From a bacterium (GTDB taxonomy: Bacteria; Orphanbacterota; Orphanbacteria; JBJXGV01), in contig JBJXGV010000001.1 in assembly GCA_046160485.1 (NCBI GenBank), forward strand, positions 1,479 through 65,478: a stretch of DNA of 64,000 nucleotides. The letters are read 5' to 3'. Shown one piece after another: positions 37,293 to 47,575 of this stretch (position 1 is the stretch's first letter; each line of letters starts with the position of its first letter). The notes under the pieces were generated by a model. It ran no database searches. It worked only from the letters and a program-made list of their open reading frames with translations, and was not told the DNA's origin. A program made the translations under genes and the position numbers.

Positions 37293-37375
37293 TTTCGCGG
37301 CGGGATGTTAGCACCGGCCCGAGGCGCCGCATAGCGATCGCGGCCGGGAAAGCGCCCACGGCCGCGATCGCCCCT

Positions 37376-38314
37376 CTAGCGAACTCGAGGGCTCGTCTGC
37401 GCGACCGCTACGGTGTCGACAGCGCAGCCCACGCCGCCTGCGCCGATCTGCCCGCAGTCGCCGGCATTCGCCGCCGCGCAGGGCGAACCGGAAGAGATCG
37501 AGAACGTGGCGCGCTCGCAGAAGAGAGGGTCGGCGTGAAAATCGGAGGCGCCCGGCGCGCACTCCGTGGAGTAGTCGGTGCCGTTCGCGAAAAACGCGTT
37601 GCACGAAAGAACCGGCGAGACGATGAAGCACGCGATTCCGAAGTTCGTGCTCTCGACGATCACGTTGCGTTCGATGCGCGGCTCCGTGAAGACTGTTCGT
37701 ATCCCGCAGTCGTTCGCGCCGACGATCGTGTTGCGAGTAATGAGCGGCGCTGCGCCGTTGGCGACGTCGACGCCGAAGATACCGGGTTCGACGATGACGT
37801 TCCGCTCGACGATGCTGTTCGCATCCTGGCCGCTGCAGTAGACGCCGAAACGCGAGACGCTATCGATGGCGCAATCGACGAGGCGCGAGCCCGCGGCGAG
37901 AAGTCGCACGCCGTCGTTCAACGAGCCGGCAAGCCGCAACCCGCGAACCGTGATGCCGAGCACGCCGGAGGGGACGACGATTCCTTGGCCGCGCTGCGCC
38001 ATCGTAAAGCGCAGCACGGGCCGCGCCGCGCCGCCGACGACCGCCTCGCTTTCCGGGCGCCCCATGAGCGTCACGCCGGTGTGTCCCGCGTCGAAAACGA
38101 GGCTGCTGTCGATCATGTACTCGCCGGGCGCGACGAGAACCGTGTCGCCCGGCACCGCCATGTCGAGCGCCGCATGGAGTGTCATCGCGTCGCCCGGAAA
38201 ATTGACGATCGCGGTTTCCTCCGGTGCTCCGGGCGAATCGTCGCCGCAGCCCGTCGCGAACGTCAGCGCGCAGAGAACGAGCACCGCGCCGCGGAGGTGC
38301 TTCCGGAGCGCCAT
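37376..38314 (-). CDS. Lipoprotein with right-handed parallel beta-helix repeats (NosD/CASH-like)
   Basis: MALRKHLRGAVLVLCALTFATGCGDD lipobox, and the repeated motifs SIVERNVIVE, LITRNTIVG and RIERNVIVE. The ATG at 38314 overlaps the upstream stop by 1 nt. Confidence 0.65.
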   Translation of the reverse strand: MALRKHLRGAVLVLCALTFATGCGDDSPGAPEETAIVNFPGDAMTLHAALDMAVPGDTVLVAPGEYMIDSSLVFDAGHTGVTLMGRPESEAVVGGAARPVLRFTMAQRGQGIVVPSGVLGITVRGLRLAGSLNDGVRLLAAGSRLVDCAIDSVSRFGVYCSGQDANSIVERNVIVEPGIFGVDVANGAAPLITRNTIVGANDCGIRTVFTEPRIERNVIVESTNFGIACFIVSPVLSCNAFFANGTDYSTECAPGASDFHADPLFCERATFSISSGSPCAAANAGDCGQIGAGGVGCAVDTVAVAQTSPRVR

Positions 38315-38763
38315 CACGACGGAAATTGCGCCGGCCGGAGCCCGATATCGACGATCGAACACGCGAGAATGGGGCGCAGCCCGAGCGCTTCCGCCGCGCG
38401 AATCACCTCGTCGCTCTCCGCTCCCGGGTTGAGATAGAACTCCGCCGGACGCGCCGCGGCGATGTCGGGAAGAAGCGAGAGCAATCGTTGCGGGGGAAGG
38501 TAGACGGAGATCCTGTCTAGCGGGCGCGGGACGTCGCGAATCGACGCGAAGGCGGGAAGCCCCTCGATCGACGTCGCGGTAGGATGAATCGGGAAGACGT
38601 CGTAGCCCGCGGCGAGATGCGCGCGCACCGACTTGTTTCCGAATTTGGAACGGTCGCTCGACGCGCCGAGAATGGCGACACGCGGCTTCTGTTCGTCGGC
38701 CACCGGATCCTCCGTAGCGCGCGATCGCCCGCGACAACTCGCGGGCACGACGCGCACGGGCAT
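38314..38763 (-). CDS. CoA-binding domain protein (YccU-like)
   Basis: RVAILGASSDRSKFGNKSVRAHLAAGYDVFPIHP...VYLPP...FYLNPGAES. The start may be the GTG at 38703. Confidence 0.75.
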   Translation of the reverse strand: MPVRVVPASCRGRSRATEDPVADEQKPRVAILGASSDRSKFGNKSVRAHLAAGYDVFPIHPTATSIEGLPAFASIRDVPRPLDRISVYLPPQRLLSLLPDIAAARPAEFYLNPGAESDEVIRAAEALGLRPILACSIVDIGLRPAQFPS

Positions 38764-38819
38764 CCTAGCAGAAGGCTTCGCGCCTCGCCACGATCGGGCG
38801 CGTACGCGAGCGCTCTCGA

Positions 38820-39602
38820 TTAGTCGGCCGCCTCGGAGAAGCCGACGAAGAACCCGTAGTCGCCGTCGTTCCGGAAAACCGCCTCCGTCGAGAGATTGAA
38901 GTACGGGCCGACGCGATAATCGAAACCGGCGAGCGCGTACGGCGAAATCGACGAGCCGAACTCCTCGCGTTCATCCGCGACGATGCTCGGCGTTATGCCG
39001 GAGAGATCGGTCTGCACGCGATGCACGTTTCCCTCGACGCCGCGCATCGCGAGGCCGAAGTACGGTGCGAACAGCCGCGTGCTGAAGACAATCGCAGCGG
39101 TCGCCTGAAGTTCGCGCCACGAGTAGTCGGTCTCGAATCGTTCACGCAACACGGCGCTCGGGAAAACCAGGTCCATCTCACCGACGCCGCTCGAGAGCAG
39201 CATCAGTCCTTCGGCGGCGACGACGAGGCGCGGTGCGTTGGGGCCCGACGAAAACCTCATCGGCTCCATGCGCACGCCGCCGCCCCACGCGAAGCGCGGA
39301 TTCGTATTCAGCGCGACGCGGTTGCCCGCGATCTCGCCGATCACGTCGATATCGGCCGCGCCGGCGCGAAACGTCAGGTTCATTCGCGGCGCGAGCCTGT
39401 ACGTCGCCTTCGCCAGATAGCGATCCGACTCCGCGGCGTCGTTTCCGATCGGCGTCACGACGTGTTCCGTCTCGACGCCGATGACGAATCCGCCCTGGCT
39501 CGGCAGGCTCACGGGATTTCCGAAGGAGGCCGCCTCGGCTCCGCCGGCCACGCAGAGCGCCGCCATGATGGCCAGTGCGAACTGTTGGGTGGCTGTCTTC
39601 AT
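38820..39602 (-). CDS. Small outer-membrane beta-barrel protein (~260 aa), family unknown
   Basis: MKTATQQFALAIMAALCVAGGAEA signal peptide, alternating hydrophobic strands (ATYRLAPRMNLTFRAG, AWGGGVRMEP, VVAAEGLMLL, YALAGFDYRV) and an aromatic-rich C-terminal strand DYGFFVGF. Confidence 0.6.
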   Translation of the reverse strand: MKTATQQFALAIMAALCVAGGAEAASFGNPVSLPSQGGFVIGVETEHVVTPIGNDAAESDRYLAKATYRLAPRMNLTFRAGAADIDVIGEIAGNRVALNTNPRFAWGGGVRMEPMRFSSGPNAPRLVVAAEGLMLLSSGVGEMDLVFPSAVLRERFETDYSWRELQATAAIVFSTRLFAPYFGLAMRGVEGNVHRVQTDLSGITPSIVADEREEFGSSISPYALAGFDYRVGPYFNLSTEAVFRNDGDYGFFVGFSEAAD

Positions 39603-39624
39603 GATGGTCGTCCGCCTCCGTTTC

Positions 39625-42600
39625 TTAATCGATCGTTCCGCTGTAGATGAACGAAGCGTTCCCGTTTGCACTGTTCGTAACCGTGATCTTGATGAAGCAG
39701 TTGACCGGCGGCGCTGTGTCGCCCGGCGAACCGTCGTACGCGGTGACCGCGTAGTACGTCGCGCCCTGCGACTGCGTGTCGGGAAGCTGAACCGACGTGT
39801 CGCCGACGAACGTCGACGCGCCCGAGAATTCGAAGTTGATGAACGTCAGCTCGACGAGCGGATTGCCGCAGTCGTCGCCAACGTAGAAGATGATCGGCAC
39901 GGAGCCGCCATCCGGCACCGCGAACGTCGATGTTGCCGGATAGAGGACATCGATCTGCGTCGAGCCCGACATGAGAACCCGCGCCTCGGCTTCAATTGTT
40001 TGGTTGTACTCGTCCACGGTCCGCGCGGTCACGTAGGCGTAGCCGGTGTCCGCGCACGTCGGCGACGGCGCCGCCGTATAGAGCGTCGCGACCGCCTGGC
40101 CGACCGCATTCGTGATCGCCGATCCGGTAATGCCCCCTCGGTTCGTCGAGAACGAAACGACGGTTCCCGGCGGTACAGGATTCGAGTACTTGTCGAAGAT
40201 GAACGCCGTGATCCGGTCTTCGAGGCCGTAGCGCACGCGGCCCGCGATGTTGGCCTTCTGCATCGCCAGCGAGAAGTGCGCTTGATCCGGCGGCCCGCCG
40301 CTGACGACAACGGACGCAACCTCCGACGCAATCAGCGGGCTCGATCCGACCACCGCCGCACGCACCTTTGCGACGCCCGCGACGGTGCCGCTGTTGACGC
40401 TCGTGCGAGCGAGTCCGAGCGCGTCCGTCGTCACCGTAACCGGCGAGAGGTACGCGCCGCCGCCCGGCGACGACGTGAACTCGAAGAAGACTTCCACCGC
40501 GTTGTCTTGATTGACCGGCTGCCCGGTCGCGTCACGCACCTCGAACACGAGTTCCGAACTCGAATTCTGTCCGGTCCCCGTCACGCCGATCGAGGTGTAG
40601 GCGACAGATTCCAGCGCGATGCTCGCCGCCGGTCCGGGCTCCGATCCGCTCGTGAAGTTCTTGCACATCGTGACCGTGCCTCCCGACGTCTCCGCGGAGA
40701 GCCAGAAGTTCGGGAAGTCGTCGAGAATCGCGTACGGCGCTTTCAAACACGTGACCGCGACACCGTGCGCGATGCTCTGCGTACCGGGGCAGTCGGCGAG
40801 ATTGTGCGTGAACGCAAGACCGTCGATCGCGACGTCGGGCAATGGCTCGCCCGAGCCGCAACTATCGGCGGAGACCGCGAAGAAGACGGCCGTCGAGTCT
40901 TCAACCGTGTTGGAGTAACGGTCGACGACGGTCGCCGTCACGATGAAGCTGAAGAGCGCGCCGGAAAGCGGCGCGGAGACTTGCGAAATGTTGAGGCTGA
41001 TCGAGTCGGGCGGGCCCGCGCCGATGACGACGCGCGAGTTCGCCGAGAGAAGCGGCGGAACGCTCGCGGTCACCTCGATCGTTCCCGAGAGCACGCCGCT
41101 CGACAGAGCGATGCGCGCGGCGCCATCTTCGACGGGCACGCTGACGGGGCCGCCGCCGTTCGACGGCGCGCCGAGATACTCGCCGCCGCCAGGGCCTTCC
41201 GTAATCGTGAACACCACGTTGAATCCCGACTGGATCAGATCGCCGCGCTCGTTGAAGAGTTCCGCGGAGAGCGTCGTCGTTTCCGAGCCGCCCGTTTGCG
41301 CGACCTGAATCTTCGGCGACGCCGTGCGAATCAGAATCGACGATGGAATCTGCTCCGCGAGCGAAGTCATCGAGACTTCGATCGTGTCCCGCAGCGAACC
41401 GAAGGCCGCGATCACGACGGCCGTATCAGGCTCGGCGGACGAGGTCAGCATCGCGACCGCCTTCCCGTCGTCGCCCGTTTCGAGCACGCCCGTGATGACG
41501 CCCGCCGAAGTGGAGAACGAGACCTCTTTGCCGGCGACCGGATTGTTCGACGAGTTCAGCAAGATCGCGGTCACGGCCGTCTGGCTCGAGCCGTCGGATG
41601 GGATCGTGGTTGGGCTCGCGCCGAGGATGCGGAGCGTCAGCGGCGTGAACGCCGCGGCCACCGTGTCCGAGAGCGCGCCGAAAACAGTTCCAGTCACCGT
41701 CGCGCTCCCCGGCTCGACGCCCGCGAAGAGCGTCGCCACCGAGTAACCCGTCGCGTCGGTCGAGTCGGTACTCGAGATCGAACCGAGCGTCGTGCCGTAC
41801 GCCACGATCACCTGCGGCACGGTCACCTGGCTCGTCGTCTCCTTCACGAGCGTGCGCACGAAGGTCGAATCTTCGCCGTCCGCAACGAGGCTCGCTTCGT
41901 CGATCGTCATCTCCACGGAGATGCCGCGGAACGTCGCGAACGCGTCGCCGATGTCGATGAAGTCGCCCGCGACTTCCGAATTCGCGATCTTCGCCGTGAC
42001 GAGCGCTTCGACGTCGATGCGGCTTGCGATGCTTCGCAGCGTCGCCTCCGCCTTGCCGTTGTTCTGTGTAAACGCGGTCGGCGTGATGAAGCCCGCCGTC
42101 GATTCGAAGAAGACCGGAACGCCGATCCGCGGCTGGCCGAACTCGTCGAGCACCTGCGCCGTCATCGTCGTCGTCGACGCGCCGTCCGCGATCAGGCTCG
42201 AGACGCCGGCGATCAGTTCGCCCTGCCCGACCTGAATGACGACCTCTTTCTGGAATGAGCCGAGCGACGCGGTGATGCGCGCGGTTCCTTCAGTCGTACC
42301 GCTCACGAATGTCGTTCGCGCGAAACCCTGCGCGTCGGTCACCGCCATCGTATCGACCGAGCCGATATCGGTGCGGAAGACGACAGGAATGCCCGAGACC
42401 GGAGCGCCGTTCTCATCGATGATGAAGACCGTGACCATCGCTTCTTGGTCGCCCGCGTTGACGCGCTTCGGACTCGCCGTCAGCGAACCGATGAAGTTGA
42501 TCGGCACATCGCTCGGATTGAACGGATTGACGTTGCCCTTGTCGCTGCAGCCTGCCCACACGACGACTCCCGCTAGAAGCGAGACCGTCGCGGCGAGCGC

Positions 42601-42645
42601 GACCCAACGCGGAAAACCGTTTCGCGAACGAGCGGCTTGACTCAT
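39625..42645 (-). CDS. Large lipoprotein with about nine bacterial Ig-like (Big_1/invasin-type) repeats
   Basis: MSQAARSRNGFPRWVALAATVSLLAGVVVWAGCSDKG lipobox. The repeats have the pattern ...ADG.s...vtA.v.D..GnPv.g..V.F.t..G.i......Td..G.A...l.s, for example VTVFIIDENGAPVSGIPVVFRTDIGSV...VTDAQGFARTTF. Confidence 0.75.
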   Translation of the reverse strand: MSQAARSRNGFPRWVALAATVSLLAGVVVWAGCSDKGNVNPFNPSDVPINFIGSLTASPKRVNAGDQEAMVTVFIIDENGAPVSGIPVVFRTDIGSVDTMAVTDAQGFARTTFVSGTTEGTARITASLGSFQKEVVIQVGQGELIAGVSSLIADGASTTTMTAQVLDEFGQPRIGVPVFFESTAGFITPTAFTQNNGKAEATLRSIASRIDVEALVTAKIANSEVAGDFIDIGDAFATFRGISVEMTIDEASLVADGEDSTFVRTLVKETTSQVTVPQVIVAYGTTLGSISSTDSTDATGYSVATLFAGVEPGSATVTGTVFGALSDTVAAAFTPLTLRILGASPTTIPSDGSSQTAVTAILLNSSNNPVAGKEVSFSTSAGVITGVLETGDDGKAVAMLTSSAEPDTAVVIAAFGSLRDTIEVSMTSLAEQIPSSILIRTASPKIQVAQTGGSETTTLSAELFNERGDLIQSGFNVVFTITEGPGGGEYLGAPSNGGGPVSVPVEDGAARIALSSGVLSGTIEVTASVPPLLSANSRVVIGAGPPDSISLNISQVSAPLSGALFSFIVTATVVDRYSNTVEDSTAVFFAVSADSCGSGEPLPDVAIDGLAFTHNLADCPGTQSIAHGVAVTCLKAPYAILDDFPNFWLSAETSGGTVTMCKNFTSGSEPGPAASIALESVAYTSIGVTGTGQNSSSELVFEVRDATGQPVNQDNAVEVFFEFTSSPGGGAYLSPVTVTTDALGLARTSVNSGTVAGVAKVRAAVVGSSPLIASEVASVVVSGGPPDQAHFSLAMQKANIAGRVRYGLEDRITAFIFDKYSNPVPPGTVVSFSTNRGGITGSAITNAVGQAVATLYTAAPSPTCADTGYAYVTARTVDEYNQTIEAEARVLMSGSTQIDVLYPATSTFAVPDGGSVPIIFYVGDDCGNPLVELTFINFEFSGASTFVGDTSVQLPDTQSQGATYYAVTAYDGSPGDTAPPVNCFIKITVTNSANGNASFIYSGTID

Positions 42646-42692
42646 GTCATTCCCTTCCCGACTCATCGATCGAACCCTCATCGCCGCCCTCC

Positions 42693-44021
42693 CTATCTCG
42701 GCTCGCCAAGCGTCGCGGGAACGTCGTTCATTCCGACATCCATCCCCTCGACGATCTTCGGCGTCACGAAGATGAGAAGCTCGCGGCTCTCATGCGTCCG
42801 GTTGCTCGACTTAAAAAAGTTTCCCAAGAGAGGAATGTCGCGAAGCAGCGGCACACCGTCCTCGCGGCTTGCTTCGTTCGATCGGATGAGTCCACCGATC
42901 ACGGCCGTTTCGCCATCGTCCACGAGAACACGCGTCGAGGCCTCGCTCGTAACGATGATGATTCCGCCCTGCACCGTCGCCTGCGACGAGAGGTCGCTCA
43001 CTTCGGGCTTCAGATCGAGCGTGATCCGGTTGTTCGAGTTGATATGCGGCGTCACAGTCATCTGGATTCCGATCGTCGTCAGCTGCGTGATCGGGTTGCC
43101 CGCCGCGTCCGACACGATCAGCGGAATCTTCTTGCCGACGAGGATCCGCGCTTCCTGGTTGTCGAGGGTCGTGATCTTCGGATTCGAGATGATGTTGGCC
43201 TTGTTCTGACGCGCGAGTGCTTGCAGCGTCACGTCGAGGTTTCCGTTCGGGCCCATCGTCCCGAGATGGAACTCGCCGATCGGAGCCGACAGCGGCGCAT
43301 CGATCGTGACATCGCCGACCGCATCGATATCGTTCCGATTGAGACCGTTTGCCGTCCAGTTGACGCCGAGTTCGCGAGAGACCGTCGCGTCCACGTCCAC
43401 GAGGCGCGCCGTGATCTCCACCTGCTTCGTCTGCAAGTCGAGCGTCGCGAGCATCCCTTCGATGCCGCTGAGCACCGACGAGATGTCGCGGATCACGAGC
43501 GAGTTCGTGCTCGGATCGACTTCGATCTGTCCGCGGTTGGTCAGGCCCGACTTGAGCGCCTTCGACAACTCCGCCGCCTTCGCGTAGTTCAGGCGGAAGA
43601 TGCGCGTCTGGAGCGGAAGCAAATCCTCTTTCTTGCGCGCCGACGCCTCGCGTTCGAGCGATTCGGTCTGAAGATTCTTCACCGTCGTGACGCGAATCAC
43701 GTCACCGGTCGGCGACATCTCCCAGCCGTACCCGTTCGCCGAGAGAATGATATCGAGCGCGTCGCCCCACACGACATCCTTCAGGCGCACCGTCACGTCG
43801 CCCTTCACTTCGGGGCCCGCGACGATGTTGCGTCCGCCGTAGTCCGCGAGGCTGCGCAGCACCGAACGAATATCCGCGGATTGGACGTCGATCGAAATCT
43901 TGTCCCCCGCGAGCGTGATCTTCCCTTCCGTGGTCGAAAGCCCCCCTTGGCCCCAACCAGCGGCCGGCGCGAGCGCGATGAGCGCGGTCGCTAGAAGGAC
44001 CTTGAAATTCAGCCGGTCCAT
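42693..44021 (-). CDS. pilQ: Type IV pilus secretin PilQ
   Basis: Signal peptide, N0/N1 region (SADIRSVLRSLADYGGRNIV) and secretin core PKITTLDNQEARILVG...GETAVIGGL...VPLLRDIPLLGNFFK...ELLIFVTPKIV. Confidence 0.9.
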   Translation of the reverse strand: MDRLNFKVLLATALIALAPAAGWGQGGLSTTEGKITLAGDKISIDVQSADIRSVLRSLADYGGRNIVAGPEVKGDVTVRLKDVVWGDALDIILSANGYGWEMSPTGDVIRVTTVKNLQTESLEREASARKKEDLLPLQTRIFRLNYAKAAELSKALKSGLTNRGQIEVDPSTNSLVIRDISSVLSGIEGMLATLDLQTKQVEITARLVDVDATVSRELGVNWTANGLNRNDIDAVGDVTIDAPLSAPIGEFHLGTMGPNGNLDVTLQALARQNKANIISNPKITTLDNQEARILVGKKIPLIVSDAAGNPITQLTTIGIQMTVTPHINSNNRITLDLKPEVSDLSSQATVQGGIIIVTSEASTRVLVDDGETAVIGGLIRSNEASREDGVPLLRDIPLLGNFFKSSNRTHESRELLIFVTPKIVEGMDVGMNDVPATLGEPR

Positions 44022-44023
44022 GG

Positions 44024-45040
44024 TCAGTTCCCCTCCATGCGAGTGGGCTCGAGACGGAGCGTGAGCCGTTTGAACTCCCCGTGAATAACTTGGTCGATGA
44101 CGATGGCGTCTCTTGAGATCGACGACACACGCCCATACATGACTCGGTCGCCCTCGCGGACGACGTAGCCGCGGCGCTCGCGATCTTCGACGAGCGCGCA
44201 GATTCCGTTTGAGCCCCAGATGATTCCGACGAAGCGCATTCCGTCCGGGTCGATGATCGTGCCCGCGGCGCTACTCTGATCCGTGACCGTGACAAGCGCG
44301 AGAAACGGGTCGCGGCCATCGAACGCCGTATATCCTGGCCCCATCTCGCGGAGAATCGATTCGTCTTCGAATTCGAATGGGTCTGAGCTCTCCCAATCTT
44401 CGTCGCCATCTTCCGCGTAATCGTTCGCCGCATCGGCAGCGCCGAAGGCGTCCTCTTCCCGCGGCGTGCCCGCATCGTCCGCGCTCGGTGTCGTGCTCGG
44501 CATCGCACTCGGCGGCGCGAACTCTTCGCCCGTCGCCGGTGAGTCGTCGCGCTCGAGCGTGACGTTGTCGTCGCTCGAGGCCATCGCGACCTGCATCTCC
44601 TCCGATGCCTCCGATGTCGCGGGCTCGGTCTGCGCGCTGATCTCGGCGCCGGTGACGATCTCTGGAGGCGCCTGGCCTTCGCGCGCCGCAAGCGCCACGC
44701 TGCCGCCGTTCGCGTTGTTCGCCGCCTCGGTCGCCGCGTTGATCACGCTCATCGCCATTCCTGCTCCGGATGGGGCCATCGCGTCGTTGTCGGTGTCGCC
44801 GGCACTGCGCGCTTTCGCCGCCGCCAGCCGCGCCGAACGCTCCGCGCCGGCGTCCGCGGGCTGCGCGGTCTCCACCGAGTCGGAACGATTCGGGTACGCG
44901 ATAAAGCCGATGACGCCGTCGATTGCCTTCTGACCCGCCATGCCGAGCGAACTTCCCAAGAGCGACCCCGAACCGAGAAAAGCGACGGCCAAGAGCGCAA
45001 GCGTCGCCATGCAGGCGATCACCACCGTTTTACTCTTCAT
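44024..45040 (-). CDS. pilP: PilP-like pilus assembly protein with a long acidic low-complexity linker
   Basis: N-terminal anchor MKSKTVVIACMATLALLAVAF, C-terminal beta domain DPFLALV...MRFVGIIWGSNGICALVEDRERRGYVVREGDRV...GRVSSISRDAIVI, and its position between pilO and pilQ. Confidence 0.7.
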   Translation of the reverse strand: MKSKTVVIACMATLALLAVAFLGSGSLLGSSLGMAGQKAIDGVIGFIAYPNRSDSVETAQPADAGAERSARLAAAKARSAGDTDNDAMAPSGAGMAMSVINAATEAANNANGGSVALAAREGQAPPEIVTGAEISAQTEPATSEASEEMQVAMASSDDNVTLERDDSPATGEEFAPPSAMPSTTPSADDAGTPREEDAFGAADAANDYAEDGDEDWESSDPFEFEDESILREMGPGYTAFDGRDPFLALVTVTDQSSAAGTIIDPDGMRFVGIIWGSNGICALVEDRERRGYVVREGDRVMYGRVSSISRDAIVIDQVIHGEFKRLTLRLEPTRMEGN

Positions 45041-45761
45041 GCGGAGTACTCCTGCGAGCCTGGCTCTCGGCCGGCGCGCCCGACTTCGCGGCGGCTGCCT
45101 TGAGCTTGGCGCCTGTGTCGCCTTGGGCCTCGATCGCATCGACGTGATCCGATCCGAGCGAATAGGCCGTGATCGTCATCGCGCCGAGCACCGTCGTGGC
45201 GCTCTGCGTATCGCGATCGTCCCGGGAGTTGTTTTGGTCGACCGCGGCAAGATCGAGATTCGTGACGTTGACGATGCGCGTCATCCCCGCGAGCTCCGCG
45301 AGGAACGTACCGACGCTGTGGAATCCGCCCTCGATTTTCACCGCGACCGGATGCTCCGTGTAGAACGTGTTCGGCACCGGCTCGGTCGGCTCGAAGAGCG
45401 TGAAGACGATCCCCGCCTGCTGGCCGGCCACCGTCACCTTGCGCAGAAGGCTCGCCATCTCTTTTTGCGGCGGAAGAAGGTTCGTCGCGGCGCTCCACTT
45501 CACGTGAAGCTCCTCCATCTCCTGCTCGAGCCGCGGCAAGTTCGCCGCCGTCCGCTTCGCCTGCTCGACCTCCGCCGTCAGCTTCGCGACCTTCGCGCGC
45601 ATCTCCGCGATCTGCGCGGCACGCGGCGGGTAGAAGAACGGCAGAAAGTTCGTGAAGAAATAGAAGAAGGTCACCACGAGAAGCGCGGCGGAAATGATGA
45701 GCCCGCGCTGCAAGTTCGTGCTTGAGAGATCCAGCTTCGGAAGCCGCAATGTCATCTGCAT
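45030..45761 (-). CDS. pilO: Type IV pilus assembly protein PilO
   Basis: Single TM, a coiled coil (QIAEMRAKVAKLTAEVEQAKR...LPRLEQEMEEL), LLPPQKEMASLLRKV...VKIEGGFHSVGTFLAELAGMTRIVNV. Confidence 0.8.
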   Translation of the reverse strand: MQMTLRLPKLDLSSTNLQRGLIISAALLVVTFFYFFTNFLPFFYPPRAAQIAEMRAKVAKLTAEVEQAKRTAANLPRLEQEMEELHVKWSAATNLLPPQKEMASLLRKVTVAGQQAGIVFTLFEPTEPVPNTFYTEHPVAVKIEGGFHSVGTFLAELAGMTRIVNVTNLDLAAVDQNNSRDDRDTQSATTVLGAMTITAYSLGSDHVDAIEAQGDTGAKLKAAAAKSGAPAESQARRSTPHEE

Positions 45762-45775
45762 CGTCGTGTGTGTCC

Positions 45776-46375
45776 TTAGTATTGCGTCGCGTCGGGAGGA
45801 ATCGCCGCTGCGGTCGAGTCGACGGCCGCCTTCGTGAGAACCGCCGTCATTCGGAACTCGACGACGTCTCGTTCGCCGACCTCACCCTTCTTCGACACGC
45901 TCAGGTCAACGTTCTCGTAGAGATCGGAGCTTTCGAGCTTCGCCATGAAATCGGAGAGCGTCAGGTTCGAGAAGGTCCGTCCTTGGATCTCCGCGCTGGC
46001 GCCTTCGGATTCGACGAACTTCGTCAGCCACGCGTAGCGCGGCATGTTCGAGTTGAGATCTTCGAGGAGCCGCACGCGGAAGCTGCGCTCGACATCGAGA
46101 TCGGCGATGACGGCGATCTTCGCCTCGAGGTCGCGGCGTTCCTTCGCGATCTCGTTCACGCGCTGAATGAGCGGCTTGTACTTCGCGGCGAGCGTCTCGA
46201 GCGTTGCGGCTTCTTCCTGAATCGCGTTGAGCGAGTGGCTCTGCAGCGCGTGAGCGGAGAAGATCATGAACGCCGCGCAACCGATCGCGGCAACACCGGC
46301 GATCATCCAAATGCGATCTTTGGAGTCGTCTTGGCTTACGCGATCTTCGAGAGGAAGTAGGTTTATCCGAATCAC
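45776..46375 (-). CDS. pilN: Type IV pilus assembly protein PilN
   Basis: MIRINLLP is the conserved PilM-binding N-terminus, followed by a TM and a coiled coil. Confidence 0.85.
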   Translation of the reverse strand: MIRINLLPLEDRVSQDDSKDRIWMIAGVAAIGCAAFMIFSAHALQSHSLNAIQEEAATLETLAAKYKPLIQRVNEIAKERRDLEAKIAVIADLDVERSFRVRLLEDLNSNMPRYAWLTKFVESEGASAEIQGRTFSNLTLSDFMAKLESSDLYENVDLSVSKKGEVGERDVVEFRMTAVLTKAAVDSTAAAIPPDATQY

Positions 46376-46379
46376 GGGA

Positions 46380-47441
46380 TCACCTCGTCCGCAGTGCCAG
46401 GCCGACGGCGACCGTCAGCTGGGGCGCGAGCAGTTCGAGATCCTCTCCGGTGAACAGCCCGTCGGCGTAGGCGACGCGCGCGAGACAGTTGCCCACCTCG
46501 ACGGAAACCGCGTGCCGTTCGGCGAGCGCCGAAAGAAGACCAGGGATACGAGAGCTTCCGCCGGCGAGCACGATGCGATCGATCTTCTCCGCTTCGCCGG
46601 AAGACTTCAGGAACGAGACGGAACGTTCGACGCCGACCGCGAGGTCTTCGCAGATCGTCGCGACGATTTCGGCGAGTTCGGTCGAGTTTTCGGCGCCTTC
46701 CGCGGTGAGCGTCGCGAGCGCTTGCTCGCGATTGACGCTCAAGCGTTTCTGGATCTGCTCGGTGAACGTATTGCCGGCGATCCAGATGTCGCGCGTGAAG
46801 AGAGGAATGCCGTCGCGCACGATGTTGAGGTTCGTTACCGACGCGCCCACGTTCATGAGGAGGACCGTCTCGCCCTCTTGAGGCGTCGTGTTCGCTTCGT
46901 ACGCGTTCTGCACGGCGAACGCGTCGACGTCGACGATCCGCGGCATGAAGCCGGCGTCCTGAAGAAGCGCGACATGCGCGTCTACCATTTCGCGCTTCGC
47001 CGCGACGAGGAGAACTTCCATCTTGTCGGGCGACTTCGCATCGGTATCGCGAAGCACCTGATAGTCGAGATAGACGTCGTCGATTCCGAACGGGATATGA
47101 TGTTCGGCTTCGAGGTAAATCGCCTCGCTCGCTTCGTTCGGCGGCAGGCGATCGACGAGGATCTTCTTCACGATGACGGCGCGCCCCGAAACAGCGGTTG
47201 CCACATCCGTTCCCGCGATGCCTTTCGACTCCATGAGATCGCGAATCGTGTCGACGACGACCTCACGGTCCATCACCTCGCCATCGACGATCGCGTCGGT
47301 CAGAAGCTTCGCGATGCCGTAGTTCGTGAGGACGTGTTTGCCGCCGCGTTTCGTGATCTCAGCGACTTTCACCGAGTGGGAACCGATGTCGACTCCGATG
47401 GCAGTGCCGCCACCTTTGCCGAACAACCCGCCAAGCTTCAT
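46380..47441 (-). CDS. pilM: Type IV pilus assembly ATPase-fold protein PilM
   Basis: AIGVDIGSHSVKVAEI... is actin-like, with ...LAGGSSRIPGL. The ATG at 47441 has AAGGAG upstream. Confidence 0.88.
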   Translation of the reverse strand: MKLGGLFGKGGGTAIGVDIGSHSVKVAEITKRGGKHVLTNYGIAKLLTDAIVDGEVMDREVVVDTIRDLMESKGIAGTDVATAVSGRAVIVKKILVDRLPPNEASEAIYLEAEHHIPFGIDDVYLDYQVLRDTDAKSPDKMEVLLVAAKREMVDAHVALLQDAGFMPRIVDVDAFAVQNAYEANTTPQEGETVLLMNVGASVTNLNIVRDGIPLFTRDIWIAGNTFTEQIQKRLSVNREQALATLTAEGAENSTELAEIVATICEDLAVGVERSVSFLKSSGEAEKIDRIVLAGGSSRIPGLLSALAERHAVSVEVGNCLARVAYADGLFTGEDLELLAPQLTVAVGLALRTR

Positions 47442-47575
47442 AGAGGCTCCTTCCACACGAGAGGGTCTGCCGATCAGGCCCCACCCGACCTGTATCGACA
47501 GACCCTTCGATGAGCTTGAGCACGATTCTGGAGGGCTTCCGGCCTAAGCGCCGCGCGGTCGCCTCCCGCTGGCGG

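Follow-up and report, generated by a model that had tools for sequence, protein, structure and literature searches.

To our knowledge, only a few routes have been described by which lipoproteins or long adhesins reach the surface of diderm bacteria, namely type V secretion, Slam, type II secretion systems (T2SS) with their substrates, and the lipoprotein export signal of Bacteroidota, whose machinery has not been identified. Here we describe a pair of genes in a window of 64,000 nucleotides from a bacterium of the class Orphanbacteria (assembly GCA_046160485.1, contig JBJXGV010000001.1, positions 1,479 to 65,478). One gene encodes a lipoprotein built of immunoglobulin-like (Ig) repeats and the other a protein of 260 amino acids (aa) predicted to form a small outer-membrane beta-barrel, and both lie behind the genes of a type IVa pilus (T4aP) operon. 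We tentatively favour, with a confidence somewhat short of even, the reading that this pair is an accessory surface-fibre module of the pilus operon, working like a split type Ve autotransporter or like SprB/SprF and belonging to neither.

In type Ve autotransporters, such as intimin, invasin and FdeC, a barrel of about 250 residues and about 12 strands is paired with a variable-length rod of Big_1/invasin-type Ig domains, and the pair in the window repeats this combination. However, type Ve proteins are single polypeptides with a C-terminal passenger, whereas in the window the passenger gene comes first and the barrel gene follows 22 nt later. Moreover, the passenger is predicted to be lipidated at its N-terminus, its conserved end is the N-terminal one, and it is set in a type IV pilus operon. 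An earlier note on this DNA had suggested a possible kinship to inverse autotransporters, which the tests made here do not support. The 260-aa protein had no match to PF11924 (IAT_beta) at E ≤ 1, and none of the 10 genomes of the class had one, with a positive E. coli control; no intimin or invasin chain appeared in a profile search of Protein Data Bank (PDB) sequences at E ≤ 10, nor among the top 50 Foldseek matches of either of two structural models. Membership in type Ve fails because the barrel lacks IAT_beta and because there are two genes instead of a single chain; by analogy, a split type Ve-like way of working is possible for the pair. ZirT/ZirS/ZirU have been proposed as a two-partner inverse autotransporter in which the Big-domain proteins are separate and co-encoded (PMC4943183). 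A separate, co-encoded Big-domain protein is also what the window has, but its barrel, unlike that of ZirT/ZirS, is not of the IAT_beta type.

Lipoproteins are also known to reach the surface by way of a secretin machine, PulA being a T2SS-dependent surface lipoprotein. InvL of Acinetobacter baumannii is an intimin/invasin-like lipoprotein without a barrel domain, which needs the T2SS for surface localisation and secretion, and no partner barrel is named in the parts of that paper drawn on here (PMC9245377). Like InvL and PulA, the Ig protein of the window is a lipobox lipoprotein, with invasin-like Ig domains only and no translocator of its own, and its tie to a secretin is genetic linkage to pilQ; unlike T2SS-dependent InvL, it belongs to a T4aP operon and has a dedicated barrel gene. 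In the type IX secretion system (T9SS) of Bacteroidota, the gene for the very long repetitive adhesin SprB is followed by that of a small cognate barrel of the PorP/SprF type. The lineage of the window, which we take to belong to the same FCB (Fibrobacterota, Chlorobiota, Bacteroidota) superphylum, likewise has an adhesin-type gene directly followed by a small barrel gene. In contrast to SprB/SprF, the barrel has no PorP/SprF match in Pfam, and the Ig protein is a lipoprotein in which a Pfam scan found no T9SS C-terminal domain. As for generic small barrels (PF13505, OmpX/OmpW/omptin-like proteins, the Legionella major outer-membrane protein), the window protein shares their size and fold class, but a single branch divides its Ig-linked subfamily from the rest, and the gene partner of this subfamily is fixed.

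The Ig protein matched the Pfam families Big_1 (E 2.6e-46, six stretches) and Invasin_D3 (E 5.5e-49, seven stretches), and an iterated jackhmmer profile built from one repeat mapped nine tandem domains. Together with the lipobox VVWAG-C, this bears out the description, in the earlier note, of a lipobox lipoprotein with about nine Ig repeats after pilQ. Only the signal peptide, the lipobox and an 18-residue tether precede the Ig domains, and no distinct tip domain was found. Equivalents of the lipobox are present in all full-length partner genes read (AAGC, WIGC, VAGC, WTGC, LFSC and the atypical VQC, LQC and ITC). The number of Ig domains in the partners of the same barrel subfamily runs from 6 to at least 39, with the barrel constant at about 250 aa. 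Pfam detected no LysM domain and no tetratricopeptide repeat (TPR). With its about 1000 aa of Ig domains, the lipoprotein differs from the type IV pilus pilotins (PilF/PilW/Tgl), which are small outer-membrane lipoproteins of TPR repeats. One orthologue of the Ig lipoprotein (L020, G006:C26) matches in two different reading frames, which meet at about 9303; a frameshift or pseudogene would explain this, as would an assembly error.

The small protein had been described in the earlier note as a signal-peptide-bearing, beta-barrel-like protein, and structure prediction agrees. AlphaFold2 gave a beta-barrel for the window protein (predicted local distance difference test, pLDDT, 86.7; predicted template modelling score, pTM, 0.79) and the same fold for a 28%-identical homologue from locus L083 (pLDDT 90.2). 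DSSP assigns 11 strands to the window model and 10 elements to that of the homologue, in which we read element 194-222 as two strands with a tight turn, giving 11. The models predict, with high confidence for the fold, a barrel of 10-12 strands, with an extended N-terminal segment that bears a G-N-P motif conserved in the alignment. At E ≤ 1 the protein matched no Pfam or NCBIfam family, apart from a chance hit on the signal peptide, which places it outside the well-known porin families. PF04575 (DUF560, Slam), a comparison that the earlier note had called for, and PF11751 (PorP_SprF) were both absent from it at E ≤ 1 and from 39 family members at E ≤ 0.1. PF13505 (OMP_b-brl) matched 10 of the 39 aligned family members at E ≤ 0.1 (best 9.2e-09) and did not match the window protein at E ≤ 1. 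A HMMER search of 1.84 billion representative proteins returned only 42 clusters at E ≤ 1e-3, which, leaving aside two artefacts of repeats and some fragments of 126-219 aa, are all 240-295 aa long, and a profile search of a collection of 5.8 billion proteins added almost no further members. Among the homologues no fusion of Ig domains and barrel was found: P0016 and P0022, though long, are spurious repeat artefacts, and in G321 a frame of 1223 aa runs from stop to stop in DNA of 76% GC and matches only in part.

Comparisons with solved structures were less specific. The profile search of PDB sequences gave weak partial matches only, to a major outer-membrane porin, VDAC and OmpX. In Foldseek, the best PDB neighbours were FapF, which we take to be a 12-stranded polypeptide transporter, the omptins Pla and OmpT, and the autotransporter beta-domains of EspP, AIDA-I, NalP, Hbp and BrkA, at TM scores of 0.40-0.49; the omptins were among the best fold matches by root-mean-square deviation (rmsd, 7-10 Å), and porins of 14-16 strands scored far lower. 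As far as the models go, this is a generic small-barrel signal, and we regard the barrel as a specialised branch of a broader family of outer-membrane barrels of about 250 aa that bears no family name. A further fold neighbour, 9nh1_A (TM 0.48, rmsd 8.1), is a 'porin I' of the Dot/Icm machine of Legionella, observed in situ, and two members of the barrel family match the Legionella_OMP model of Pfam weakly; both are hints that small barrels can dock onto the outer-membrane complexes of secretion machines.

The association of the two genes extends well beyond the window. Relatives of its PilQ in genome collections bear the lineage name Candidatus Eisenbacteria, and the organisms concerned are all uncultured. 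Of the other nine genomes in the class, eight have a barrel homologue (27-31% identity in a single-protein search), the ninth having a fragment at a contig end. All seven class relatives that were read with 18-kb flanks (26-31% barrel identity) have pilMNOPQ followed by the gene for an Ig lipoprotein of some 1100 aa whose lipobox is kept, then the barrel gene and aroK-rsmD-coaD. A profile search of 401 genomes for the barrel was followed by reading the neighbours of the strong matches outside the class. There, an Ig gene stands directly upstream of the barrel in 12 genomes (G161, G315, G327, G174, G074, G226, G164, G318, G189, G020, G345 and G237), encoding proteins of about 700 to more than 3,977 aa, and in five of the 12 the pair lies directly behind pilMNOPQ. 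The Ig-barrel spacing of about 20 nt is maintained at 26-30% barrel identity and across candidate phyla. In G226 (L055, C7, 1200-11424), the order is a PilM-like protein of 576 aa, a PilO-like protein of 189 aa, the Ig protein (1425 aa), the barrel, a 152-aa protein without assignment and a secretin of 773 aa whose N-terminus has STN and FecR_C-like parts. In G345 the pair comes after two sigma-54 response regulators, in G164 and G318 it stands alone beside lpxB, and on two short metagenome contigs with distant barrel members the upstream gene ends in an Ig domain. The weaker members of the barrel family (profile E 1e-17 to 1e-33) have no adjoining Ig gene, and some are in tandem arrays. Three small genomes (G319, L157/L067; G165, L158; G392, L159) of 1.0-1.4 Mb and 42-47% GC have two or three distant barrel copies each, some in tandem and none with an Ig partner, which may be major outer-membrane proteins of those lineages.

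Conservation of the pair, usually together with pilQ, is thus borne out by the seven class relatives and the 12 genomes outside the class. The pair accompanies pilQ widely and is found in G164 and G318 without pilQ nearby; an Ig gene without a barrel follows pilQ in Zixibacteria and Ignavibacteria. The earlier note had named three findings that would speak against it, namely a small protein that is no barrel, one that belongs to a known porin family, and a pair that is not conserved; what was found is a predicted barrel, without a named family, in a conserved pair. A maximum-likelihood tree of 41 barrels has a branch (94/88 support) that sets apart the 26 Ig-linked ones, with only two unlinked rows in their company, and the Ig-link label changes three times on the tree as against 12.4 times in shuffles, none of 500 shuffles being as low. 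Because of this near-monophyly, the partnership looks, from the sequences, like one of single origin with rare losses.

Across phyla, the part of the Ig protein that is conserved wherever a barrel gene accompanies it is its N-terminal base. Compared with the window protein over the N-terminal 260 aa, barrel-linked Ig proteins scored 52-131 bits (at least 87 in nine of 13 full-length partners) and two N-truncated barrel-linked reading frames 36-51 bits, whereas Ig proteins without a barrel scored 23-40 bits. Over the C-terminal 230 residues, conservation is confined to three closer relatives (L074, L075 and L063). Directly after the Cys, the motif C-x-[DEK]-[DEK]-G-x-[LIV]-N-P is present in 13 of 17 barrel-linked Ig proteins and in none of eight barrel-less ones. 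The barrel-less proteins with six Ig domains and those of G164 and G318 are orthologous over their full length, about 700 aa, at 35-39% identity, and inside this orthologous group too the motif occurs in the barrel-linked members and not in the barrel-less ones. The presence of the barrel therefore tracks the tether motif at the N-terminus.

Taken together, these data suggest how the module might work. The Ig and barrel genes would be co-transcribed with pilMNOPQ and translated in step; co-transcription is suggested by the absence of a terminator-like site and by spacers of 11-47 nt and 22 nt with Shine-Dalgarno sites. The Ig protein would be processed as a lipoprotein, as its conserved lipobox suggests, and its nine Ig domains would project from the outer membrane as a flexible rod, serving as a surface fibre or adhesin. 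The membrane-proximal base of this rod would consist of the lipidated Cys, the 18-residue tether with its G-x-[LIV]-N-P and Ig domains 1-2. The 260-aa protein, inserted in the outer membrane as a barrel of 10-12 strands according to the models, would most likely bind this base and help the tether through the outer membrane or keep it in place there, with the rod outside, beside the exit of the pilus. Joint action of barrel and base at the outer membrane is suggested by the conserved base and its motif, the spacing of about 20 nt and the near-monophyly of the Ig-linked barrels. A more specific version, in which the tether completes or threads the barrel, by donating a strand or by displacing the N-terminal segment of the barrel, would make the pair a split display device at the pilus exit and a new route for a lipoprotein fibre; it is conceivable because both models have an odd 11 strands and both mature N-termini bear a motif of the G-x-x-N-P type, and we consider it improbable.

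Several observations weigh against the surface-fibre module and bear on its rivals. Among 80 PilQ loci from named genomes that were examined for the genes after pilQ, nine from Zixibacteria, GN15 and Ignavibacteria (L106, L110, L111, L112, L114, L115, L116, L118 and L131) have a six-Ig lipoprotein directly after pilQ, with no barrel behind it in the loci long enough to include the next gene (the sequence of L112 and L114 stops within the Ig gene, that of L131 about 350 bp beyond it). What follows there is a gene for an AMP-binding enzyme, UPF0047 or IF-2B, and genes of 560-600 aa that were considered as hidden barrels are in fact AMP-binding enzymes. At E ≤ 1e-5 the barrel profile matched none of 17 genomes, made up of those with a barrel-less Ig gene and Eisenbacteria-like ones without both genes. 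The barrel is therefore dispensable in part of the family and is not a universal exporter. Conversely, the P0009 lineage, with a 41%-identical barrel (nine contigs read, loci L001-L004), has the order pilQ-barrel-aroC without an Ig gene (L001:8659-10777), so the barrel may have a role of its own alongside PilQ. This loss of the Ig gene is recent, since P0010 (L171), with a barrel 69% identical to that of P0009, still has upstream an orthologue of the Ig protein of the window (59% identity over the last 228 residues). In addition, the correlation of motif and barrel rests on few independent lineages, the fold matches are generic, and within the class the tether does not stand out in conservation from the remainder of the protein (0.41, mean 0.40); only in the contrast across phyla does it do so. 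A Nitrospirae metagenome-assembled genome (L147, 11322-15472) has pilQ, a 189-aa protein without assignment, an Ig-repeat lipoprotein of 853 aa and a HEAT-repeat protein, and no barrel.

The barrel-less loci (L106, L110, L111, L115, L116, L118 and L131) would fit a machine in which the pilus apparatus itself exports the Ig lipoprotein through or beside PilQ, with the barrel as an accessory dock for the lipid-anchored base, given that the Ig gene follows pilQ in most loci, with or without a barrel. The T4aP and T2SS machines are homologous, and the PilQ of the window is short, without a detected AMIN domain. The T2SS exports PulA, and it is required for InvL, a barrel-less invasin-like lipoprotein (PMC9245377). 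However, the pair occurs in G164 and G318 without a secretin gene within about 10 kb, the genome of the window has two further secretins and eight T2SSE-family ATPases, so that a separate T2SS could serve, and this reading does not account for the barrel subfamily being coupled so tightly, and almost monophyletically, to the conserved N-terminal base. We also know of no experimental precedent for the export of a lipoprotein by a T4aP machine, and altogether we hold export by way of PilQ to be rather unlikely. Much the same low probability attaches, in our judgement, to the absence of any mechanical coupling, in which case the barrel would be a general small outer-membrane protein, porin-like or associated with PilQ, and the Ig lipoprotein an independent adhesin co-expressed for surface colonisation. 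The matches of PF13505 within the family, the weaker members that are alone or in tandem arrays unlinked to Ig genes, the P0009 lineage and the fold neighbour 9nh1_A, a small porin in the Dot/Icm machine, all agree with such independence, but a single branch has the Ig-linked barrels on the same side, the link having been lost only twice, the close adjacency is retained at low identity across candidate phyla, and the tether motif occurs in none of the barrel-less Ig proteins examined. A periplasmic strut or ring, which would replace the missing AMIN domains of the short PilQ and have the barrel as its outer-membrane foot, is very improbable. Pfam did detect no AMIN domain in PilQ, and both genes lie within pilus assembly operons, once between the pilO-like and secretin genes. 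Yet 6 to at least 39 Ig domains, at the usual 3-4 nm each, are incompatible with the fixed width of the periplasm, and this variation in rod length argues for an extracellular fibre; moreover, L076 and L078, with an equally short PilQ, have neither gene.

The features of the locus, where GC is 62-67%, are collected in Table 1. PilQ scored 333 bits against TIGR02515 of NCBIfam (cut-off 284) and matched PF00263 (E 1.1e-48), PF03958 and PF21305 in Pfam; it has N0, a single Secretin_N and the Secretin domain, and the Pfam scan detected no AMIN domain. The start of the Ig gene may be either of two codons. ATG 42681 has GGAGGG 5 nt upstream and lies only 11 nt past the pilQ stop, for which reasons it is at least as likely a start as ATG 42645; the public gene call of 1018 aa at a 94%-identical locus (L005) uses the equivalent start, and the signal peptide would then have a longer n-region. 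The gap of 47 nt to pilQ given in the earlier note accordingly holds for a start at 42645 and falls to 11 nt for one at 42681. The 22 nt it gave between the Ig and barrel genes stand, and this spacer, with GGAGG 12 nt ahead of the barrel ATG, is consistent with operon coupling of the two genes. No terminator-like site was found within 37300-44100.

Table 1. Features of the pilus operon and of the Ig-barrel gene pair, in the numbering of the 64,000-nt window; the whole operon and both genes of the pair are on the minus strand.
Feature	Position	Strand	Basis
pilM	46380-47456	-	
pilN	45776-46375	-	
pilO	45030-45761	-	
PilP-like gene	44024-45139	-	
pilQ, short type IVa pilus secretin, 442 aa	42693-44021	-	TIGR02515, PF00263, PF03958, PF21305
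pilQ-lipoprotein junction with two candidate starts (ATG 42681 after GGAGGG; ATG 42645 after GAAGGGA)	42646-42692	-	
Ig-repeat lipoprotein gene, 1006 aa (1018 aa if start 42681)	39625-42645	-	Pfam, domain map
Signal peptide of Ig lipoprotein, residues 1-32 (1006-aa numbering), lipobox V-W-A-G before Cys33	42550-42645	-	translation
Predicted lipidated Cys33 and N-terminal 18-aa tether CSDKGNVNPFNPSDVPINF	42493-42549	-	motif C-x-[DEK]-[DEK]-G-x-[LIV]-N-P
Nine tandem Ig-like (Big_1/Invasin_D3) domains, residues 52-1002 of 1006	39640-42492	-	Pfam and jackhmmer map
Spacer between Ig gene and barrel gene, 22 nt, GGAGG Shine-Dalgarno	39603-39624	-	
Barrel-protein gene, 260 aa	38820-39602	-	open reading frame, stop included
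Signal peptide of barrel protein, residues 1-24, AEA|AS	39531-39602	-	translation; model helix 2-17, low pLDDT 17-25
Predicted mature small outer-membrane beta-barrel, G-N-P near N-terminus, 11 DSSP strands, Y-x-W-R-E motif	38820-39530 (with stop)	-	AlphaFold2, Foldseek, alignment

On the 3' side of the barrel, the window has a small gene (38314-38703) and then a gene for a parallel beta-helix lipoprotein (37376-38313, lipobox FATGC). The conserved block ends with the barrel, since the class relatives continue with aroK-rsmD-coaD and the window does not. A plus-strand open reading frame of 925 aa (39481-42258) was considered as a gene and is taken for an antisense shadow that the Ig gene casts in DNA of 65% GC, on the sole basis of its Arg-rich, low-complexity translation. 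The genome of the window (G000, contigs C8, C9 and C12; loci L160-L170) has three secretins in total and eight T2SSE-family ATPases: contig 12 has an adjacent pair of a long and a short ATPase, PilB/PilT-like; contig 9 has a secretin beside a short ATPase; and on contig 8 a secretin and a long ATPase about 8 kb apart may belong to a T2SS. The genome therefore has candidate motor ATPases for the pilus operon of the window at other places, and it may also have a separate T2SS.

In full-text literature searches we found no description of an Ig-barrel module of a pilus operon. Surface display by a barrel together with an Ig rod follows a known logic; new are the family of the barrel, the lipidation of the passenger and the embedding in a pilus operon. 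What emerges is a module of only two genes, whose barrel family is named in no database; it recurs in several uncultured phyla and is wired into a pilus operon. If the barrel is the partner of the lipidated base, the two proteins would form a new minimal surface-display pair, and the barrel would be, as far as we know, the first outer-membrane accessory recognised at type IV pilus loci of these lineages. The barrel-linked and barrel-less orthologues of the Ig lipoprotein constitute a natural experiment on its export route.

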